A stretch of 59,145 bases of DNA from an uncultured Methanosarcinales archaeon (lineage in GTDB: Archaea; Nanobdellota; Nanobdellia; Woesearchaeales; DATGWN01): positions 1 through 59,145 of the forward strand of contig CAZUXP010000003.1 in assembly GCA_964624275.1 (NCBI GenBank), in the 5' to 3' direction. A program made the position numbers and the translations under genes. A model generated the notes under the pieces. The model made no database searches. It was not told where the DNA came from and saw nothing but the letters and a program-made list of their open reading frames with translations. Below are positions 3,189-33,645 of this stretch, one piece after another (the stretch's first letter is position 1; each line of letters starts with the position of its first letter).

Positions 3189-3416
3189 ATGAACAAATTA
3201 TACAAAAGTAACGATAATAATGTATTCTCAGGTGTCTGTGGAGGTATTGGCGAATATTTTGATATCGATCCTGTTATCATTCGAATCATTTTTATCCTAT
3301 TTGCAATTTTCACTGTATTTATTCCAACACTTTTGGTTTACATCATCTTAATTATTATAATTCCGAATAAACCAAAGGGACCGATTAATATCACACCAAA
3401 AAAATTAAAAAAATGA
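3189..3416 (+). CDS. PspC-domain membrane protein
   Basis: NKLYKSNDNNVFSGVCGGIGEYFDIDPVIIRIIFILF is the PspC signature. The ATG at 3189 is preferred over the TTG at 3126 used by the ORF track. Confidence 0.7.
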   Translation: MNKLYKSNDNNVFSGVCGGIGEYFDIDPVIIRIIFILFAIFTVFIPTLLVYIILIIIIPNKPKGPINITPKKLKK

Positions 3417-3997
3417 ATACAGTAAGACTTTTCATAGGTGTTTTTTTTGAAAAACAAACATTTCAAACAATTGCACTATTTCTATTCTCACTTGTTTTAT
3501 CAAATATCTATCTGTTACTTTTTATTATCGGACTTGGTATTGGAACTGGAACGCTCTTGTACGCCATCGGAATTTTTATTTTACTTGCAACATTTTTTCT
3601 CATATATCAAATTGGTAATTTTGAACGATTCATACATAAGATAAAACGCGAAAAAACAAAAAAGTTTACTTCAACAATTTCTTATATACAACAAGCATTT
3701 TTGACAAAACGCTACGCAAAAACATGGTTATTTCTCCTTACTAAAATTTTGCTCTATCACGCAATTGCAGGAATCGTTATACTTTGCATATATGTCGGAT
3801 CATACTATCTTGCCATACCATTTATTTATCTCACATTACAAGATGAAATTCTTCGAACAAGTTTATTTATCATAGATACACATATTAAAGCAATGTTATT
3901 TGGGATCATCGGATATGTATTATTTTTAGTAAGTATCTACCTCATAAAACTCGCAGTACATACAGAAAAACTTCTCACACAATTGTTACACAATTAA
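3413..3997 (+). CDS. Polytopic membrane protein coupled to the PspC-domain gene
   Basis: Several hydrophobic helices and an ATGA overlap with the upstream stop. Confidence 0.5.
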   Translation: MNTVRLFIGVFFEKQTFQTIALFLFSLVLSNIYLLLFIIGLGIGTGTLLYAIGIFILLATFFLIYQIGNFERFIHKIKREKTKKFTSTISYIQQAFLTKRYAKTWLFLLTKILLYHAIAGIVILCIYVGSYYLAIPFIYLTLQDEILRTSLFIIDTHIKAMLFGIIGYVLFLVSIYLIKLAVHTEKLLTQLLHN

Positions 3998-5929
3998 TAT
4001 TGGTGTATCACTCCGAATTCCATAAACATACACATAACTCCAAAATAATCTTTTTTGCACAACAACATTAACTTGAAATCCACATTCTGAAAATACATGT
4101 TTAATATTTTCTGGGGTTGTTAGCCAATGTTGATTTGGAATAAGGTGAAAAAAATTTTGAAAATCAAAAAAACAAACTCGACCACCAATTTTTATGACAT
4201 CACGTAACTTACTTAAAATTTGATATGGGTCTTCTAAAAAACTTAACGTATCAATTGAAACAACTGCATCAACCGTATCTGTAATTGATTCATGAAGCGT
4301 GTAATGGTATTCGTGGTGATGTAGTACAATTAACTCACCTTTTATTCGTTCTATTGAATCCCATTTTGGATTTTCAAGTCGTTTTTGTAAAATCTGTAAT
4401 TCAGTTTGTGAATTATTAATCGTGATAACTTTACCCGATGAGCCAACATTAACAATAAGATGTTGCGTCAGTGTTCCAACACTTCCCCCATATTCTAAAA
4501 CCGTTTTTGCAGTTATATCACCCAGATATGAAATAATTTCTTTTTGTATTTTTTTTGGGATAAAAACATTTTCAAATAATAACGTATAATATGCCGTAGC
4601 ATTTTTCATATTTTGACTAAATTGTGAATCATTATAGACTTTAACTAAAAAATAAACTGGGATGCCAATTGATAAAAATGAACCAGCTAATAATAACAGT
4701 TTTGGTGCATGTGGATCAGTAAATGACCAATATAACACCATTGTTAAAAATAATACAATTAAAATTATTGGTCCAATTTTTGCAAAAGGAACACGAAAAT
4801 GCCTTATAAGTTCAGGTTTACGTATCCGTAATAATACAACGGCAAACACAATAAAAGAATACAAAATTAATACTAATGGCACAAGCATATGCAACAATGT
4901 TTCATATGAACCTGCACCTGCAATAATAAATGTAATAATTAAAATCGTTTGAAATAAAATCGCATTTGATGGCGTTTTATATTTCGGCGAAATTTTTGCT
5001 AATTGACGTATAAATAATTTATCTTCAGCTAATGCAAGCAATAAACGCGGTGCACTTACAACCCAACCGGCAACTGAACCAATAATTGCTAAATATACTA
5101 ACAACGCAAACACTGTTGAAAATCCATCTCCATAATAAAACAATCCTAAATCAGAAAGTGGTGCAGCACTTAAACCAAACTCCTGCCAAGGTATTGCACC
5201 TAATGAAAACAACACAAAGCAAAAACAAATAATTGAAATAATAATTGTTGATATGAATAATGCCTTTGGAACAACTTTTTCACCATCAATAGTTTCTCCT
5301 GCTAAAAATGTCGCAGTTTCCCATCCAAAAAATGTTTCTGCAATTAAATAAATTGTTAATAAAATTCCACCCGTACCAACAACAAAAAATGGGCTTAAAT
5401 AGGATGATTCAAATGTAAATACACCTGGTATTGTGAGTGAAATTATAGTCGTCAGAGTTATAATTGAAAATGCAACAAGCATCGTAGAACTTGTTTCCAT
5501 ACCTCTGTATGTAATATAATTAAAAACTAAAATAAGAACTATCGAAAATCCGATAACAACCCATGCATCTATTGTTTGGGGTAATAAATACGAAATTGCG
5601 CCAATCATTAGCATCGCAATTGTAATATATCCAACAATCATAGAAGTCCAACCAATAAAAAAAGACACGGTTCTTCCATATACTTGTTTGGCAAATTCAT
5701 AGATTCCACCAGATTTTGGAAACATACTCGTTAATTCTGCAAAACACATAGAAGTATAAATTGCTATTGCAGACATAACAGCCCACGCAATAAGTGATGA
5801 TGGTCCACTAATACTTGCACCCACAGCAGGTAAAAAGAAAATACCAGTACCCATTATCGAATTAATTGTAATGAGAAGGATTGTTTTATATCCTAATACT
5901 TTTTGTAACTCCTCTTTTTTTTCAACCAT
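3986..5929 (-). CDS. APC-family amino-acid/polyamine permease fused to a C-terminal class I SAM-methyltransferase-like domain
   Basis: About 12 TM helices with an APC-like N-terminus (GTGIFFLPA). The C-terminal ~200 aa carry VLEYGGSVG (motif I-like), DAVVSIDTL and IKIGGRVCFFD. Confidence 0.75.
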   Translation of the reverse strand: MVEKKEELQKVLGYKTILLITINSIMGTGIFFLPAVGASISGPSSLIAWAVMSAIAIYTSMCFAELTSMFPKSGGIYEFAKQVYGRTVSFFIGWTSMIVGYITIAMLMIGAISYLLPQTIDAWVVIGFSIVLILVFNYITYRGMETSSTMLVAFSIITLTTIISLTIPGVFTFESSYLSPFFVVGTGGILLTIYLIAETFFGWETATFLAGETIDGEKVVPKALFISTIIISIICFCFVLFSLGAIPWQEFGLSAAPLSDLGLFYYGDGFSTVFALLVYLAIIGSVAGWVVSAPRLLLALAEDKLFIRQLAKISPKYKTPSNAILFQTILIITFIIAGAGSYETLLHMLVPLVLILYSFIVFAVVLLRIRKPELIRHFRVPFAKIGPIILIVLFLTMVLYWSFTDPHAPKLLLLAGSFLSIGIPVYFLVKVYNDSQFSQNMKNATAYYTLLFENVFIPKKIQKEIISYLGDITAKTVLEYGGSVGTLTQHLIVNVGSSGKVITINNSQTELQILQKRLENPKWDSIERIKGELIVLHHHEYHYTLHESITDTVDAVVSIDTLSFLEDPYQILSKLRDVIKIGGRVCFFDFQNFFHLIPNQHWLTTPENIKHVFSECGFQVNVVVQKRLFWSYVYVYGIRSDTPILIV

Positions 5930-5986
5930 ATAATAAACCTTATAGACATACGAAAACTTATAAATGTTTATGCTTTTATCTTTAAA

Positions 5987-6148
5987 ATGAACAAACTCAA
6001 AATCGCAGATATTAGTGTACTGAGTATTACTGTGATTAATTTTATTGGGTTTTTTACAACCATTATCCCACCTGTATACTTTTTAAGTATTTTAGCTGTT
6101 TGTGCACTGTATACGTATGGTATTCGAACAAAATTTGTAAAAAAATAA
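5987..6148 (+). CDS. Possible 53-aa two-TM membrane peptide, not in the ORF track
   Basis: ATG...TAA ORF encoding MNKLKIADISVLSITVINFIGFFTTIIPPVYFLSILAVCALYTYGIRTKFVKK in an otherwise empty 226-bp gap. Confidence 0.25.
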   Translation: MNKLKIADISVLSITVINFIGFFTTIIPPVYFLSILAVCALYTYGIRTKFVKK

Positions 6149-6155
6149 AAATCAC

Positions 6156-7130
6156 TTAAATCGTGATCTGAGTTTTTTGTTCTGGAATAAGTGAAATAGA
6201 TGAACCAATCCCTTTACCCATTTCATAAAAACTCTGTGATATCATTGAAAATACTGCTTCAAAAAATGTTGGTTGACGAGTATAACTTACAAGATTGACT
6301 GTTGCATTCAATTGTTTTTCTAAGTGTGTAATTGCGTCATTTTTTGAACCTATTTCATCAATTAATCCTATTTCTAGAGCTTGTACTCCTGAATAAAACA
6401 TTCCATCAGCCAAATCTAACACTTCTTGTTGCGACATATTTCGATTTTGCGAAACTTCCATAACAAACACATCATATAGTGAATCTAATACTGATTGAAA
6501 ATGTTGACGTTGTTCATCAGTTGGCGAAACAAATGGTGAACCAAAATCTTTATTCTCACCAGCAACAAAACGTTGATAGGAAATATTATATTGATCGATA
6601 AATTCTGAAAAGTCTAAAAATCCAGATAATACCCCAATTGATCCAACTGCTGATAATCGGTTTGCATAAATATAATCAGTTGATGATGCAATCCAATATG
6701 ATGCCGAAGTTCCCATCTCACGAATATATGAAACAGTCGGTTTATCTAATTGTGCGATTGCACGAGATATTTCATCAGCAGCCACTCCGCTTCCACCCGG
6801 TGAATTAATTTCAAAAATGATACCTTTTATTTTTTTATCATCACCAATACGTTCTAAAATACTCACAATTTGTTCTGAAGAAGTAGATTGTGTGCCTCCA
6901 AATAGAGATGATTGAGATTGCGTCAGAATTGTCCCATCAATTTTGATAAATGCAACATTTAATTGAGATGAACTAAATGAGCTTTCAGCACTTGCTGAAA
7001 ATGAAGATATAAATACTAACAAAACAACTGGTAGTATAACAAATAAACCAATAATACCAATAACTATTATTGTAATTAAACCCCATACAGGAATTTTTTT
7101 TTTTTGAGAAGATTCTTTTTGTGAAGTCAT
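6156..7130 (-). CDS. sppA: Signal peptide peptidase SppA (S49 family, 36K type)
   Basis: IIFEINSPGGSGVAADEI and GTSASYWIA motifs with an N-terminal TM anchor. Confidence 0.8.
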   Translation of the reverse strand: MTSQKESSQKKKIPVWGLITIIVIGIIGLFVILPVVLLVFISSFSASAESSFSSSQLNVAFIKIDGTILTQSQSSLFGGTQSTSSEQIVSILERIGDDKKIKGIIFEINSPGGSGVAADEISRAIAQLDKPTVSYIREMGTSASYWIASSTDYIYANRLSAVGSIGVLSGFLDFSEFIDQYNISYQRFVAGENKDFGSPFVSPTDEQRQHFQSVLDSLYDVFVMEVSQNRNMSQQEVLDLADGMFYSGVQALEIGLIDEIGSKNDAITHLEKQLNATVNLVSYTRQPTFFEAVFSMISQSFYEMGKGIGSSISLIPEQKTQITI

Positions 7131-24085: not shown

Positions 24086-25882
24086 ATGAACCAATCTTCG
24101 AATCCTGAGACCGAAAAGAAAATGCAGAAAATGCAAACGACACTGACCGAATTTAAAGATAAAGTACTTGCAAAATTTGAAGGGTACATTACAGGAATTT
24201 CACTCCTTCCTCCAGGTAAAACCATTTTTAATAGTATTGATGAAGAAGAAAAAGAATTACCTAAGGAAAAAATGAGTGTTTTAGTTCTTGTTGATGATAC
24301 CGAATCAACAAAGATAGATAAACTTGAATTAAAAGCAAAACTTGATGAAAAAATACAAGAAATTGCAAAATCCGTTGATCCAAATATTCACGCTCAAACA
24401 CTTATTCATACTGAACTCTGGCAGTACTGTTTTGATTCAAAAACCGAAATACTTGGACTTCTGGCAACAACTGCAATTATTTATGATGCAGGTATGCTTG
24501 GTGCGATTAAAATTGCAGAAGTTCATAAACAAATGGTTTTAAAAAAGTTTGAAAAATATATTGTGAGTTACGTTTTAGCAGGAAGTTTAGTGCAAGGAAA
24601 AGCAACACCTCAAAGTGATGTTGATGTTTTTATTGTCATTGACGATACTGATGTCAAAAAAATGACTCGTGTTGAATTAAAAGATAAACTTCGTTCAATT
24701 ATAATTGGTATGAGTGCACAAGCAAGTGAAATGACTGGTATTAAAAAAGCGTTTAACATTCAAACATATATTTTAACTGATTTTTGGGATTCAATTAAAG
24801 AAGCAAATCCAGTAATCTTTACATTTTTACGAGACGGAGTTCCATTTTTTGATCGGGGAATTTTCATGCCTTGGAAACAACTCTTACAAATGGGTAAAGT
24901 TAAACCAAGCATGGAAGCAATTGATATGTACATGAATACGGGAGAGCAAATGCTTGAACGAACACAACTTAAGTTAAATGAAATTGGAATGGAAGATACT
25001 TTTTGGTCGATCCTGTATCCATCACAAGCAGCACTTATGTTATATGGTCTTGCACCACCAACACCAAAAGAAACTCCTGAGCTTCTTCGAAAAGTTTTTG
25101 TAAAAAAAGAAAAACTACTTGAAGATAAATACGTGAAAATATTAGAACACAATATTAAAGTTCGAAAAGATCTTGAACATGGACCAAAGAAGAAAACAAC
25201 TGGAAAAGAAATAGATACACTTATGAGTGATGCGCAAGATTTCTTAAAACGAATTCGAAAACTATTTGACGATATTCAAGAAAAACAAATGAAACAATCA
25301 CTCGTTCATACATACGACCATGTTGTAACAATAATACGTGATATATTCAAACTTATCGGATTAAAGAAAAAAATATCTGAAAACGATATACCTGTTGCAT
25401 TCAAAGAACACGTTGTTGACTCTGGAGAAATTCCAATGCGAACAATGCGAATGCTTGAATCACTTCTTAAAGCAAAAAATGAACATACGAATGGAACATT
25501 ACATAAATCCGAAATTGAAAAAATAAGTATTCAGGCTCAAGAACTCATTCGACTTTTAGTTGAATATATACAAAAAAAACGTGGTGTTGAACTTGAACGA
25601 ATGAAACTTCGAATCAAATCAGGTAAGAATTTTGGCGAAGTAATTTTATTAGATAAAATTGCATATATTATACATGATATAGATGCACCTCAACGCAAAT
25701 ATTCAAAAGCAACAATAACCGATAAAGGTGGACTAACACAAATACAAGAAAGTTCAATAGAAGAACTTGAAAAGGATCTCGTAAAAATTCAAATACCTCA
25801 ACGCGCATTTATCAAAGACCAAATATTCATGGATTTAAAAAAGATATTTGGTAAAGATGTTGAAGTGTTACTTAATTTATAA
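24086..25882 (+). CDS. Large nucleotidyltransferase-domain protein: degenerate NTase-like N-terminus, active-looking MNT domain and helical HEPN-like C-terminal regions
   Basis: LAGSLVQGKATPQSDVDVFIVIDD is the G-S...D-x-D motif. An upstream MSVLVLVDD segment lacks G-S. A long helical C-terminus follows. Confidence 0.6.
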   Translation: MNQSSNPETEKKMQKMQTTLTEFKDKVLAKFEGYITGISLLPPGKTIFNSIDEEEKELPKEKMSVLVLVDDTESTKIDKLELKAKLDEKIQEIAKSVDPNIHAQTLIHTELWQYCFDSKTEILGLLATTAIIYDAGMLGAIKIAEVHKQMVLKKFEKYIVSYVLAGSLVQGKATPQSDVDVFIVIDDTDVKKMTRVELKDKLRSIIIGMSAQASEMTGIKKAFNIQTYILTDFWDSIKEANPVIFTFLRDGVPFFDRGIFMPWKQLLQMGKVKPSMEAIDMYMNTGEQMLERTQLKLNEIGMEDTFWSILYPSQAALMLYGLAPPTPKETPELLRKVFVKKEKLLEDKYVKILEHNIKVRKDLEHGPKKKTTGKEIDTLMSDAQDFLKRIRKLFDDIQEKQMKQSLVHTYDHVVTIIRDIFKLIGLKKKISENDIPVAFKEHVVDSGEIPMRTMRMLESLLKAKNEHTNGTLHKSEIEKISIQAQELIRLLVEYIQKKRGVELERMKLRIKSGKNFGEVILLDKIAYIIHDIDAPQRKYSKATITDKGGLTQIQESSIEELEKDLVKIQIPQRAFIKDQIFMDLKKIFGKDVEVLLNL

Positions 25883-26055
25883 TTACATGAATTTTTGCAC
25901 TTTTGGCTCTAAACTCAGAGTCTGTTTCACATCATAATTATTATAGTGTAAAATACTACTATAATTAAATTGTTAAGACAGAGCTTAAAAAAACAAATAG
26001 TTTATATAATATTTCTACTTTCCATTTTTTGAAAGGGGATATATTAGGTGAAATA

Positions 26056-26559
26056 ATGGAAACGGGATATACAGTTTTAGATGCAATGACTCACATGCCC
26101 ATTACGGTTCTTCATACAGATTCCGTGTCGAAATGTGCACAAATAATGGCAAAACACCGATTGGGTAGTTTACTCATTTTACAAGACGATAAACTTTCAG
26201 GTATTGTAACCGAAGGAGATTTAATTCGAAAAGTACTCTCAAAAGGACTCGATCCGTTACAGACACCAGTACATAATGTTATGTCAAAAGACATTATAAG
26301 TGTCTCGCCACACATGGATATTCACGAAGCAATGCTTACTATGAATAATTTTGATATTCGACACGCTCCTGTATTACATGAAGAAAAACTTGCTGGTTTT
26401 TTAACGCTTAAAGATATTTTACGAATCCAACCAGAATTATTTGAAATTCTTGCTGAAAAAAACAAAATGCAACAACCCGCAAATGAATTAGATATTGATT
26501 TTGATACGGATAATGATTTGGATGATGATGAGCCTATCATAAAACCTTATCATGATTAA
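26056..26559 (+). CDS. CBS-domain pair protein with an acidic tail
   Basis: Two CBS repeats (VLDAMT...GIVTEGDLIRKV and VMSKDIISV...GFLTLKDILR). The ATG at 26056 is preceded by GGTGA; the track used a TTG at 26029. Confidence 0.8.
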   Translation: METGYTVLDAMTHMPITVLHTDSVSKCAQIMAKHRLGSLLILQDDKLSGIVTEGDLIRKVLSKGLDPLQTPVHNVMSKDIISVSPHMDIHEAMLTMNNFDIRHAPVLHEEKLAGFLTLKDILRIQPELFEILAEKNKMQQPANELDIDFDTDNDLDDDEPIIKPYHD

Positions 26560-30773: not shown

Positions 30774-30927
30774 AATATATCTAAATATTGTTTTTCTTAA
30801 AAAGGTTCTTATTTTATATCAAAATTATAATATGAATTATAATATAAATATACAATATCTATATTTGATACATAAAACCGAAACATTCTTAATAGATAAG
30901 TTGAGACAAAAATATAGAGGAGATATT

Positions 30928-31368
30928 ATGACAAATAAAGGAAAAAAAGTATCTGTAGAATACACGGGCACATTTGACGATGGCGTTGAGTTTGATAGCT
31001 CAAAAAAACACGGTAAACCGCTTGAATTTGTTGCGGGAGAAGGCCAAGTTGTTGCAGGATTTGATAATGCTGTTGTTGAAATGAAAGTTGGCGAAGAGAA
31101 AAAAATTCGTCTTGAAGCAACAGATGCATATGGTGAACGAAAAGAAGAATTAAGTAAAAAAGTTCCAAAAGATCAAGTTCCAGGAGATATTACGCCTGAA
31201 GTAGGTATGCAAATTGGTATCACACTTGGCGATGGACGACAATTTCCAGCTTTAATATCAGATGTGAGTGAAAGTGAAATTACGCTTGATTTAAATCACC
31301 CATTGGCAGGAAAATCACTTAATTTTGAATTAAAATTAGTTGATGTCCAAGATGCAAAAGCTGAATAA
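30928..31368 (+). CDS. FKBP-type peptidyl-prolyl isomerase with an insert-in-flap domain (SlyD-like short archaeal FKBP)
   Basis: VSVEYTGTFDDGVEFDSS...LEFVAGEGQVVAGFDNAV...NHPLAGKSLNFELKLVDV. The ATG at 30928 is preceded by GAGGAG. Confidence 0.85.
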   Translation: MTNKGKKVSVEYTGTFDDGVEFDSSKKHGKPLEFVAGEGQVVAGFDNAVVEMKVGEEKKIRLEATDAYGERKEELSKKVPKDQVPGDITPEVGMQIGITLGDGRQFPALISDVSESEITLDLNHPLAGKSLNFELKLVDVQDAKAE

Positions 31369-31563
31369 GTTAAAATGTATACAGTAAATGGTACAAACCA
31401 TTTCTTTTTCTTCTTTTTTTAATATGTGACAATAAACAACTTGTATAAACATAATCTTATCTCTTAATTCATACAAAATCATTGTTTTGTAATAAAATAC
31501 CACCCAATAGCATAACACCATAAAAAAAACACATTTAAATAGGAATAGTCTTAAAAAGACTCT

Positions 31564-32073
31564 ATGAGTACAAAAACCAATATCCCTGTTAATTTACCAT
31601 TACGATTTAGTGGAACATTTGATTATGAAGGATTTTATCGATTTATCATAAAATGGATGTCAGATCGAAAGATGAAATGTTTTGAGAGTCCATATAAAAA
31701 TAAAGAATCTGGACCTGGAATGATTGAAATTGAATCAAAGATAAAAGGAGAAGTAAAACTTGATGAATACCAGAAATTTACCTGTACAGTTAAATATAAA
31801 GCAATAGATATGAGGTATATTGACGTTGAAATAAATGGACAAAAACAAAAACGATCCTATGGACGGATTTGGATTGACTTTAGTGGCGAAATTGAAAGCG
31901 ATTATCAGAATATATTCGGAAAAACACCTCTAAGTACAAAACTAGGAATACTTTTAAATCAAATCTTAAAAAAAGATACAACGAAAAATCATGTTGAGCA
32001 TTTTCGCGTTGAACTGATTAATTTACATAATGACGCAAAACAGTTTTTTAGTTCGGAGACTCAAGTAGAATGA
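31564..32073 (+). CDS. Uncharacterised protein, paralog 1 of the three-paralog cassette
   Basis: 169 aa. RFSGTF...VEINGQKQKRSYGRIWIDFSGE...helical tail. Overlaps the next gene by 4 nt. Confidence 0.6.
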   Translation: MSTKTNIPVNLPLRFSGTFDYEGFYRFIIKWMSDRKMKCFESPYKNKESGPGMIEIESKIKGEVKLDEYQKFTCTVKYKAIDMRYIDVEINGQKQKRSYGRIWIDFSGEIESDYQNIFGKTPLSTKLGILLNQILKKDTTKNHVEHFRVELINLHNDAKQFFSSETQVE

Positions 32074-32606
32074 CTGAAAAAAAACTCTTATCTCAAGGAA
32101 TACAAATTAGCCATACGGGATTATTTAGACCAAAAATTATTGAAGAGCTTATGCAAAAGTCTGTTCAAAAACAAGGATATCATTTAGAAAATGTCTCACA
32201 CGATGTTTCAGTGCAAGAACAAACAAAAAATCATACCTCAACATTTACCTTTACAAAATCACTCACTGAATATGACAGTTCATCATTAGTTGTCAATTGT
32301 TCGTTTACAAATATGAAACCAACAAAAGTTGTACAAAATGATGTTGAATCACAAGCACAAAAAGGAACTGTCACGGTTAGTTTTACTGCACATAGGCTTT
32401 CAAAACGCGAAGGATTTTTTAAAAGTTCAATGAGCGGAACAACCTCATATATGAGGTATTTTTTCCACATACTTTTTTCAAAATTTATAAAACGATCAAA
32501 ATATGATAATGTTGGAAATGTTGTTGAGAATGAAATTCGGCAAATGCAAGATGATTTAGCGACATTTATCAAACATAAAAAATATCACGAGGTAGAAAAT
32601 GCCTGA
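32070..32606 (+). CDS. Uncharacterised protein, paralog 2, the most divergent
   Basis: 178 aa. ISHTGLF...KGTVTVSFTAH...helical tail. Overlaps both neighbours. Confidence 0.6.
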   Translation: MTEKKLLSQGIQISHTGLFRPKIIEELMQKSVQKQGYHLENVSHDVSVQEQTKNHTSTFTFTKSLTEYDSSSLVVNCSFTNMKPTKVVQNDVESQAQKGTVTVSFTAHRLSKREGFFKSSMSGTTSYMRYFFHILFSKFIKRSKYDNVGNVVENEIRQMQDDLATFIKHKKYHEVENA

Positions 32607-33105
32607 ACAAACACCGATCACAAAACCAAAAAAAATTTCTTATAATGGACTATTTTCATTTAAAGAAGTACACGAGATTATTTTAAAACACTGGGATGAT
32701 TTAGGATACGATAAAATTGATATCAAACATGAAATTAAAGTTTTAAAAACAAAAACGCAATATGACTTATGGAACTCTTTTGAATATGAATATACTGATC
32801 AAGAAGCAGTAAACATATTTCAAATTATAAATGGCGAATCACAAAAAAAAGTTGAAGTTAAAATAAACGGTGAAAAACGAACATTAGATCAAGGGACATT
32901 TTTTATTCAATTTACAGGCCGTTTGAGAACTGATATCGATGATATCTGGAGAAGTAAAGGGATATATCATATTTTAAGTTATTTTGCAAACACATACATA
33001 TTTAAAAAACATTTAACCCAAATCAAAAAAAAAGGAATGAATGATTGTGATGTACTTTACGAAAAATTACTGAGATATTTTAATACGTACCGAGACTATG
33101 ACTAA
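32599..33105 (+). CDS. Uncharacterised protein, paralog 3
   Basis: 168 aa. ISYNGLF...VEVKINGEKRTLDQGTFFIQFTGR...helical tail. Confidence 0.6.
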   Translation: MPEQTPITKPKKISYNGLFSFKEVHEIILKHWDDLGYDKIDIKHEIKVLKTKTQYDLWNSFEYEYTDQEAVNIFQIINGESQKKVEVKINGEKRTLDQGTFFIQFTGRLRTDIDDIWRSKGIYHILSYFANTYIFKKHLTQIKKKGMNDCDVLYEKLLRYFNTYRDYD

Positions 33106-33487
33106 AATGACAGAATCTATCTTTGAATTAAAAAAAACAAAAAATCCACTCTGGACTCACTATGATATTTTATATGGTGAATCTTTAGCAGAAAAAAACT
33201 GGCATACTGCACTTTTACTTACAGAATTTGCAACCGAAAATATTGATATACATTGTGCAATTGATTTTGCATTACACGATGGTTTAAAACCATTTGATAC
33301 TCACACATCGGAAGGACGGTTTGTATTAGAAGTACAAGCTCTCCAAACAATCTTACAAGCAATATCGTATGAGAAACAATACGAATTAGATTTAACTGAT
33401 GTTATTGTTGAGCAAGAAAAAATGATTACAAGTCCTCATTTAATTTCATATGTAGCAAAATTTTTAATTAAACGAACAAATACCTAG
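33098..33487 (+). CDS. Uncharacterised 129-aa protein, fourth gene of the cassette
   Basis: 8-nt overlap with the preceding gene. Mostly helical by composition, with no recognisable motif. Confidence 0.55.
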   Translation: MTKMTESIFELKKTKNPLWTHYDILYGESLAEKNWHTALLLTEFATENIDIHCAIDFALHDGLKPFDTHTSEGRFVLEVQALQTILQAISYEKQYELDLTDVIVEQEKMITSPHLISYVAKFLIKRTNT

Positions 33488-33574: not shown

Positions 33575-33645
33575 TGCACTCACCGGGAATCGAACCCGGG
33601 CCACAGCCTTGGCAAGGCCATATTGTACCATTCAACCATGAGTGC
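33575..33645 (-). tRNA. tRNA-Gly (anticodon GCC)
   Basis: Minus strand: acceptor GCACTCA/TGAGTGC, anticodon loop TTGCCAA, T arm CCGGG-TTCGATT-CCCGG. Confidence 0.88.

Follow-up and report, generated by a model that had tools for sequence, protein, structure and literature searches.

A conserved tandem pair of paralogs in Woesearchaeota-type DPANN archaea and its elaboration into a four-gene cassette

A four-gene cassette in a Woesearchaeales contig

Abundant and for the most part uncultured, Woesearchaeota and related DPANN archaea have small genomes, much of which is without an assigned function. The present study deals with one such piece of DNA, a cassette of four genes (P1 to P4) in a 59,145-nt stretch, hereafter the window, which corresponds to positions 1 to 59,145 of contig CAZUXP010000003.1 in GenBank assembly GCA_964624275.1, is deposited as an uncultured Methanosarcinales archaeon and is assigned by GTDB to the Woesearchaeales. 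A sequence-only reading of the window had singled out these genes as a translationally coupled unit of three divergent paralogs plus a fourth gene, and had been unable to place any of the four products in a known family. We find that P1 to P3 belong to a large protein family whose conserved unit is a pair of adjacent paralogs, termed B and C below, and that P4 is a degenerate member of a family that is already known. The features of the cassette are as follows.

31534-31541, + strand: TATA-box-like element TTTAAATA, 23-30 nt 5' of the P1 ATG, read from the sequence
31547-31561, + strand: 5-bp inverted repeat AGTCT-TAAAA-AGACT, judged to be a chance occurrence, not a functional element
31564-32073, + strand: P1, 169 aa, ATG start; putative class B subunit, first gene of the universal B-C pair
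32070-32606, + strand: P2, 178 aa, ATG start; divergent class-C-like duplicate (C') between B and C
32599-33105, + strand: P3, 168 aa, ATG start; putative class C subunit, last gene of the B-C pair, a fast-evolving copy
33098-33487, + strand: P4, 129 aa, ATG start; truncated, degenerate HD_3-type domain, a lineage-specific add-on

The coordinates and ATG starts of these four same-strand open reading frames (ORFs) were verified, as were the start/stop overlaps from which coupling had been deduced, namely 4 nt between P1 and P2 (ATGA), 8 nt between P2 and P3 (ATGCCTGA) and 8 nt between P3 and P4 (ATGACTAA). P3 has, in addition, a GAGGT motif 5 nt ahead of its ATG. The cassette is set off on both sides as described earlier, by a 195-bp gap that separates the end of an FKBP gene (31368) from P1, and by the 87 bp between the P4 stop and a tRNA-Gly(GCC) gene on the minus strand (33575-33645).

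The only close relative of the whole cassette is found on L001, a 6.9-kb contig of a Candidatus Woesearchaeota metagenome-assembled genome (MAG; GCA_047603085.1), which holds the same four genes (3191-5095) plus syntenic Sua5, Cdc6 and FKBP genes. This contig carries TTTTTAAA 24-31 nt before the ATG of its first cassette gene, which matches the distance of the TATA-like box in the window. An archaeal TATA box is centred some 26-27 nt upstream of the transcription start site, and the placement of TTTAAATA at that distance from the P1 ATG suggests that it is a candidate promoter for a leaderless operon mRNA starting at or next to this codon. The inverted repeat that follows, to which attention had been drawn as a hairpin immediately before the first ATG, is indeed present, but a functional significance was not borne out. 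The surrounding 46 nt fold with -4.8 kcal/mol (z=-0.97), which 31 of 200 shuffled sequences equal, and L001 has no equivalent. A regulatory RNA element was thus dropped from consideration, folding being at chance level. Since the repeat lies between the TATA-like box and the start codon, it would be in untranscribed DNA if the mRNA is leaderless, and is therefore probably not part of the message.

P1 to P3 are old paralogs with conserved motifs

The similarity among the first three products, which had been read by eye, is better than chance in shuffle-controlled comparisons for two of the three pairs. P2 and P3 match each other over 131 aa (BLASTP E=4e-7; Smith-Waterman z=11.1) and P1 and P3 over 57 aa (E=2e-5; z=7.3), in each case with none of 500 shuffles scoring as well. 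P1 and P2 show no direct similarity (Smith-Waterman z=1.8), and their relationship goes through P3 and through a profile hidden Markov model (HMM) of the family, which all three match (141 bits for P1, 121 for P2 and 144 for P3, all three having been part of the seed). P4 shows no relation to P1-P3 in the same comparison. The shared motifs proposed earlier are real and hold across the family; in 120 members, next to no variation is seen at G and F in the N-terminal x-G-x-F motif or at the G with which the last strand begins. On this sequence evidence, P1-P3 are old paralogs. They are hydrophilic (pI 8.4-9.3) and, as had been noted, free of transmembrane segments and signal sequences, with a maximum Kyte-Doolittle 19-residue mean of at most 0.86, and no protein of the cassette has a hydrophobic stretch of membrane-spanning length. 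GC content is uniform across the region (~30%) and hence gives no sign of foreign DNA.

The conserved unit is a B-C pair with an optional third gene

The organisation of the family was determined by running its HMM on all ORFs of the window and of 84 further loci (85 sequences in total). Two adjacent same-strand copies are present in 50 of these sequences, three in 34 and a single copy in one. In a further set of 80 metagenome loci, the sequence reaches 1.3 kb or more upstream of the last copy in 48, and all 48 have either two (17 loci) or three copies (31 loci). Across ~165 loci the order is fixed, with an optional class A gene (~204 aa), then a class B gene (~174 aa), then a class C gene (~167 aa), which is the best conserved, all on the same strand. 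The first gene of two-copy arrays scores best as class B in 50 of 50 cases, and the last two genes of an array are a median of 2 nt apart, and no more than 20 nt apart in 70 of 83 cases. Which residues are conserved differs from class to class; class C has the run TDYExRWExKP...FxR...DKFxY...FLNL, and class B has GxFD, ExxYKxK, ExE, VEvxxGxKxK and R. These class-specific patterns show that selection differs between the paralogs. Genes for non-redundant subunits of one complex would be expected to show this combination of a universal pair, fixed order, near-zero spacing and class-specific constraint.

The four-gene cassette as such is not the conserved unit. The unit is the B-C pair, with a third paralog (class A) upstream in ~40% of genomes. 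When class HMMs were built without the window or L001 sequences, the three window proteins were assigned as follows.

P1: B 106.9, C 57.4, A 29.6 bits; class B
P2: C 55.6, B 26.7, A none; C-like duplicate (C')
P3: C 86.7, B 30.1, A 18.2 bits; class C

The order in the window is thus B (P1), C' (P2), C (P3), with an extra C-like gene that splits B from C, and the family HMM found no class A gene among the ORFs of the window. P1, which retains the B-specific residues, is 56% identical to its L001 orthologue and 35% identical to the first array gene of L088. The same B-C'-C order is found in L001 and in L088-L090, three nearly identical marine/environmental contigs that lack the fourth gene. Orthologues of P2 occur only in L001 (48% identity), L088-L090 (38%) and L091 (a fragment), and of the loci collected, the window and L001 alone carry a P4-type gene. 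Owing to this clade-restricted occurrence of P2 and P4, the four-gene cassette is best seen as a recent elaboration of an ancient two-gene core. As a side observation on this group of contigs, the B-C'-C array of L088-L090 is followed directly by a convergent gene (4590-6236, minus strand) for a 548-aa MutS_V/KamC-like ATPase related to MutS2.

A large family without a match in curated libraries

The earlier statement that P1-P3 cannot be placed in a known family was upheld by searches of Pfam, NCBIfam, PADLOC, PHROGs and PDB sequences, none of which gave a match. Library scans in which the queries were the window proteins or sets of 120 or 12 family members returned scattered sub-threshold chance matches only (e.g. 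RsaA_NTD and CENP-T_C), the 120-member family alignment (A4) matched no Pfam family, no NCBIfam model matched any of 12 typical members, and PDB sequence searches with 6- and 120-member profiles gave nothing below E ~0.6. Neither a description of such a family nor anything on the accessions of the relative was found in the literature. By the libraries searched, no known family or fold accommodates P1-P3; a profile-profile search or a search of the AlphaFold Database (AFDB) might still attach them to a superfamily.

The family nevertheless extends far beyond its source genome. Single-sequence and word-indexed searches with P3, the paralog alignment and P4 retrieved the window's own proteins and L001 only. 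An exhaustive HMMER scan, in which a five-sequence profile was run against 1.84 billion cluster representatives, retrieved 1165 representatives at E<=1e-3 (445 at E<=1e-10), the great majority of them 160-185 aa long and matched end to end; when clustered at 50% identity, the family comprises >1000 clusters. A single genome for each GTDB species was then scanned with a pattern, by which 118 relatives were confirmed, and the best 80 of them were kept as loci. Their records are almost all Woesearchaeota, Nanoarchaeota or Nanoarchaeia MAGs, or bins labelled 'uncultured Methanosarcinales'. The latter label, which is attached to the array contigs of L005, L010, L013, L026 and many others (binned third-party annotation, TPA, assemblies), fits poorly with an otherwise Woesearchaeota-type set. 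The labels Aminicenantes bacterium and Alphaproteobacteria bacterium occur once each, among L041 and L082. Such odd labels look like placeholder taxonomy or mis-binning, not a truly wider distribution. A scan of viral contigs found no relatives of the family.

The predicted fold has no close solved analogue

AlphaFold2, run on P3 with a 120-sequence alignment, produced a model with a mean predicted local distance difference test (pLDDT) score of 95.3 and a predicted TM-score (pTM) of 0.86. Its elements follow the order β-β-α-β4-α-α (β3-6, β11-19, α21-35, β38-48, β53-64, β69-89, β92-111, α121-134 and α136-165), and the last two helices correspond to the C-terminal helical tail predicted from sequence alone. 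When this model was compared by Foldseek with 350,542 PDB chains, only one chain matched at E<=1e-3, and nothing in a viral structure library exceeded a TM-score of 0.40. The fold is thus confidently predicted, with no close solved analogue among PDB chains and the viral structure library. GINS, longin/roadblock, prefoldin, tRNA-splicing endonuclease, PAC-type proteasome chaperones and tail-tube proteins, which were considered as candidates, are absent among the Foldseek matches.

The two groups of structures that come nearest do so by different measures. The lowest E-values belong to START/Bet v 1/PYL proteins (3put at 8e-4, then 3otl, 7mld and 5zyg), which raises the question of whether the family could be a very remote version of the helix-grip fold (SRPBCC/START/Bet v 1-like, TBP-like fold), which would carry or sense a hydrophobic ligand such as a host-derived lipid. 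DPANN archaea are generally thought to need scavenged lipid, the domain size is similar, and the order of elements is reminiscent, in that a strand and a helix at the N terminus lead into a long antiparallel sheet, which a long helix follows at the C terminus. However, the TM-scores of these matches are 0.15-0.21 with a root-mean-square deviation (RMSD) of ~14 Å, which means that the geometry does not superpose, and SRPBCC profiles (Polyketide_cyc, START, Bet_v_1, AHSA1 etc.) matched none of 120 members at E<=0.01 and none of the window proteins. Moreover, class C conserves mainly charged or aromatic residues and not the kind that would line a cavity, and paired paralogs are untypical of START domains. 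We consider a helix-grip carrier unlikely, and the fold itself (β-α-α-β6-α round a cavity) was rejected, being not superposable and different in the order of its elements.

The best TM-scores (0.33-0.38, with Foldseek probabilities of 0.97-1.0) were obtained with volvatoxin A2 (1pp0_B, TMq 0.38, probability 1.00), Cyt1Aa (3ron and 6t1a, TMq 0.34-0.37, probability 0.97-0.98) and the uncharacterised 3lyd, the Cyt/volvatoxin E-values being 2e-3 to 1e-2. Volvatoxin A2 and Cyt1Aa share with the P3 model an α+β make-up in which long antiparallel strands are flanked by helices, and it is the two 20-residue strands of the model, a hairpin also reflected in short matches to outer-membrane barrels, that could in principle be turned into an argument for a membrane-active protein, whose helices would peel off so that the long β-hairpins insert, for example into the host membrane during episymbiosis. 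Such a role is highly unlikely. A TM-score below 0.4 is not the same fold (the best TMq falls short of the 0.5 mark, and this fold was also rejected), there is no Pfam Cyt-toxin match, the proteins are hydrophilic and mildly basic with no secretion signal, and the locus, with its housekeeping surroundings, looks like a single-copy core module and not like a variable effector locus.

P4 is a truncated, degenerate HD_3-type domain

In contrast to P1-P3, P4 does not remain unplaceable as had been claimed, and it alone of the four is a degenerate variant of a known family, that is, a truncated HD_3-type (HDDC2/YfbR/YGK1-like) domain. Three lines of evidence, individually weak, agree on this ancestry. 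First, both P4 (21.8 bits, E=1.9e-4) and its L001 orthologue P0154 (22.4 bits, E=1.2e-4) match Pfam HD_3 (PF13023) in two stretches and just under the gathering threshold of 22.5, two independent scores that are consistent with each other. Second, the best seven matches of a two-sequence profile search of the PDB are all HD_3 proteins (HDDC2, YGL101W, AF1432), with E=0.02-0.18. Third, an AlphaFold model built from a 2-sequence alignment, which is all-helical and of low confidence (pLDDT 54), has HD_3-type structures as its top 13 Foldseek matches (5yox at TMq 0.62 and probability 1.00, all E-values being at least 0.18).

What is left of the domain is short, with 129 aa against ~165 for a full HD_3 domain, and residues ~63-123 of HDDC2 correspond to ~14 residues in P4. 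The complete H...HD...D metal-binding set was not found in either P4 orthologue; the positions equivalent to HDDC2 H49/H77-D78/D143 (a numbering taken from the names of mutants in PDB entry titles) are K/H60-D61/Q in the window protein and H/H-I/H in that of L001. Because of the shortened domain and the incomplete metal ligands, P4 is probably not catalytic. We conclude that it descends from an HD_3 phosphohydrolase, and it would most likely serve as a non-catalytic accessory or ligand-binding subunit.

Neighbouring genes

Upstream of the cassette, the window encodes CTP synthase, a rhomboid protein, Sua5, Orc1/Cdc6 and FKBP, and downstream, beyond tRNA-Gly, it encodes SufE, a PD-(D/E)XK nuclease, RtcB, methionine aminopeptidase (MetAP) and a major facilitator superfamily (MFS) transporter. 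Two genes farther upstream have homologues that recur next to the array in other genomes.

24086-25882, + strand: MNT/Pol-beta-type nucleotidyltransferase-domain protein, 598 aa (Pfam NTP_transf_2, E=7e-7); a recurrent neighbour of the array, not shown to belong to the module
26029-26559, + strand: CBS-domain protein (Pfam CBS, E=2.7e-26)

Nucleotidyltransferase homologues of ~600 aa adjoin the array in 24 of the 85 loci, as well as in L088-L090, in which the protein (646 aa) is 62% identical to the product of 24086-25882, and in 22 other loci the array is immediately preceded by a same-strand CBS homologue, at a median distance of 62 nt. In about one quarter of related genomes (e.g. L039, L057 and L088) both genes are directly upstream of the array, whereas in the window the pair (24086-26559) is parted from it by a ~5-kb block of CTP synthase, rhomboid, Sua5 and Cdc6 genes on the minus strand followed by the FKBP gene on the plus strand, a difference that points to a local rearrangement. 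The FKBP gene is inverted between the two close relatives, being on the plus strand in the window and on the minus strand in L001. Other recurrent neighbours among the 85 sequences are a divergent YchF-related GTPase (26 loci) and histidyl-tRNA synthetase (HisRS; 10 loci), and no neighbour is conserved in more than ~30% of them.

This company of genes bears on the idea that the array encodes one of the universal heteromeric complexes of archaea, diverged beyond recognition; a factor of RNA processing or translation that such reduced genomes are believed to lack would be an example. The family looks like a lineage-wide core, and its recurrent neighbours (aCPSF1, proteasome, HisRS, the YchF-related GTPase, the MNT-type nucleotidyltransferase and the CBS protein) are information-processing genes. 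It is, however, very unlikely to be the answer, since most neighbours in small genomes are information-processing anyway, none of them exceeds the ~30% just given, and the high-confidence model matches no subunit of an archaeal or eukaryotic complex in the PDB.

Downstream of the array, a same-strand ORF of at least 80 aa starts within 150 nt in 55 of 164 loci. When 54 of these ORFs were scanned against Pfam, 26 proved to be CxxCxxCC proteins, two NUDIX hydrolases, two PCMT, one adenylate kinase and one the HD_3 relic of L001. The bona fide NUDIX genes of two loci lie directly downstream of the array, and in P0099 and P0120 (loci L085-L087, which lie downstream of proteasome and aCPSF1 genes) class C is fused to a C-terminal NUDIX-like domain, which scores below the Pfam threshold (E=0.047 and 0.0022). 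The recurrence of NUDIX and HD folds 3' of C, two different folds of nucleoside-phosphate hydrolases, is a weak hint of a link to nucleotides or nucleoside phosphates, and the sole hint as to function. That the role of the module involves a nucleotide-derived ligand is a tentative suggestion that we regard as doubtful.

HD and NUDIX domains do occur in defence systems, which, together with the small size, overlap and unknown function of the genes, might bring to mind a toxin-antitoxin, defence or mobile-element module. This explanation, already disfavoured, is extremely unlikely. The searches of PADLOC, PHROGs and viral contigs found nothing related, nucleotide composition is native, the cassette is syntenic with housekeeping genes, and one arrangement is conserved lineage-wide.

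A few observations on flanking genes stand apart from these questions. For the FKBP gene (30832-31368), the longest ORF of 178 aa has a 32-residue N-terminal extension that is missing from its 143-aa L001 orthologue. An alternative ATG at 30928 has GAGGAG ahead of it at a spacing of 6 nt and is probably, judging from the sequence, the true start; this motif suggests that the organism uses Shine-Dalgarno-like sites for some genes. The interval between the divergent Orc1/Cdc6 and FKBP genes (30774-30927) is AT-rich, with imperfect inverted and direct repeats such as 30810-30831 with 30836-30857, and was rejected as a replication origin, the repeats being weak and none clearly like an origin recognition box (ORB). 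In the lineage of the C-NUDIX fusion, L085 (1-2818) carries a gene for a T2SSF-family membrane protein, then five small same-strand ORFs (74-180 aa, no Pfam match), then the proteasome and aCPSF1 genes, and may be a pilus or archaellum-like assembly locus. Finally, three large Ser/Thr protein kinase genes, one of which has a faint PKD-domain match, are found directly upstream of a three-copy array, on the same strand, in L004 (1-6872, GCA_040960315.1).

A putative hetero-oligomer of ancient paralogs

Taken together, the comparative evidence leads us to propose that P1-P3 are subunits of an obligate soluble cytoplasmic hetero-oligomer, which would be a lineage-specific housekeeping module of Woesearchaeota/Nanoarchaeota-type DPANN archaea, and to which we give a probability of roughly 0.5. 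That the paralogs form a complex at all we hold to be likely, and fixed order and near-zero spacing in ~165 loci lend strong comparative support to the idea of a hetero-oligomer; as for the housekeeping role, we infer it. In the scenario we favour, the ancestral and universal core would be an ancient pair of paralogs, B then C, whose genes adjoin each other and would share one mRNA, from which the two proteins are probably made in a fixed ratio. In the lineage of the window, duplication of the C gene would have given rise to B (P1), C' (P2) and C (P3), and a shrunken HD_3 fold (P4) would have become translationally coupled at the 3' end, so that the B:C core may have turned into B:C':C with a non-catalytic HD-like accessory subunit in this clade. 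The operon would probably be transcribed from the TATA box as a leaderless mRNA. Each subunit is modelled as an α+β domain, in which the two ~20-residue strands and the 30-residue C-terminal helix are likely pairing surfaces.

Several observations weigh against this proposal. Between the window and L001, the cassette proteins (56% identity for P1, 48% for P2, 67% for P3 and 38% for P4) have diverged faster than those of neighbouring genes (82% for Cdc6, 85% for FKBP); with L088, P3 shares 21% identity while the nucleotidyltransferase neighbour shares 62%. P3 has, in addition, replaced many of the residues that are conserved in class C elsewhere. Fast divergence and loss of class-C residues suggest that the copies of this lineage may be under relaxed constraint, adaptation being the other possible cause of the fast evolution of the clade. 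Short intergenic distances are common in compact DPANN genomes, so that close spacing counts for less in them than in other genomes. None of the 150 representatives listed is a B-C fusion. The commonest downstream gene encodes the unrelated CxxCxxCC protein, the NUDIX/HD association concerns ~7 of ~167 loci that are not phylogenetically independent, and P4 has sub-threshold Pfam scores and a model of low confidence.

Some of these points would sit equally well with tandem duplicates that do not interact, acting as separate monomers or homo-oligomers on related substrates, with overlaps that merely reflect genome compaction. Gene overlaps are common in small archaeal genomes, fusions are lacking among the representatives listed, copy number varies from two to three, and this clade has tolerated an extra duplicate. 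We nonetheless find non-interacting duplicates rather unlikely, since gene order does not vary, no locus with enough sequence lacks either B or C, and each paralog has an old, class-specific pattern of conservation, which argues for non-redundant partners kept across a phylum-level lineage, something that is rare for simple tandem duplicates. A hetero-oligomer built on B and C remains the interpretation we prefer.

A bolder version of this interpretation, which is quite unlikely, would be that B, C and A share a novel α+β fold and make up a heteromeric, DPANN-specific core machine that binds and passes on a scavenged nucleotide-derived or lipid metabolite, and that different lineages have plugged modules of nucleotide-hydrolase fold (NUDIX or a degenerate HD) into this machine as accessory subunits. 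If true, it would represent a new class of carrier/processing complex tied to a host-dependent lifestyle. Even if the family were to turn out to be a remote START-like binder with a mundane role, this would provide a useful annotation for thousands of hypothetical proteins. In either case, the family is a well-defined and tractable piece of unknown DPANN biology, owing to its small soluble proteins and co-expressible genes, and >160 paired natural sequence sets are on hand for interface prediction. A solved structure together with a ligand or partner could (i) reveal a lineage-specific housekeeping function, and (ii) extend the set of known folds, either by one not seen before or by a further branch within the helix-grip or Cyt-like folds.

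Comparison with known systems

Set beside the helix-grip proteins, the family has one N-terminal helix and not two, four to five main strands and not seven, and two C-terminal helices, and it occurs as obligate paralog pairs without a Pfam match. From Cyt δ-endotoxins and volvatoxin A2 it differs in the order of helices and strands and in the absence of sequence similarity, and it is shorter (~165 aa, against 190-245 aa for the matched chains), with a context that is cytoplasmic and housekeeping. HD_3 proteins, which include HDDC2, yeast YGK1/YGL101W, E. coli YfbR-type 5'-(deoxy)nucleotidases and AF1432, are a comparison for P4 only. Both are all-helical, P4 by its low-confidence model, and an N-terminal helix of the 'LKxxxxxxW...ESxxxH' type and a later 'xxxLxxxExxLQAxxYE' helix align. 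P4 is, however, shorter than these proteins (129 aa against ~165-200), has lost ~45 residues after the HD motif and is translationally coupled to an unrelated paralog array.

For the array itself, the closest parallels are DsrEFH/TusBCD, archaeal prefoldin α/β and the α/β tRNA-splicing endonuclease of Nanoarchaeum, all of which are heteromers of tandemly encoded ancient paralogs. The analogy is in genetic logic only, since the array has no sequence or fold relation to any of the three, none of which came up in the fold search of the PDB. What the array has in common with these heteromers is that old paralogs of equal size are adjacent, in fixed order and co-translated, and that extra duplicates have been added in a lineage-specific manner.

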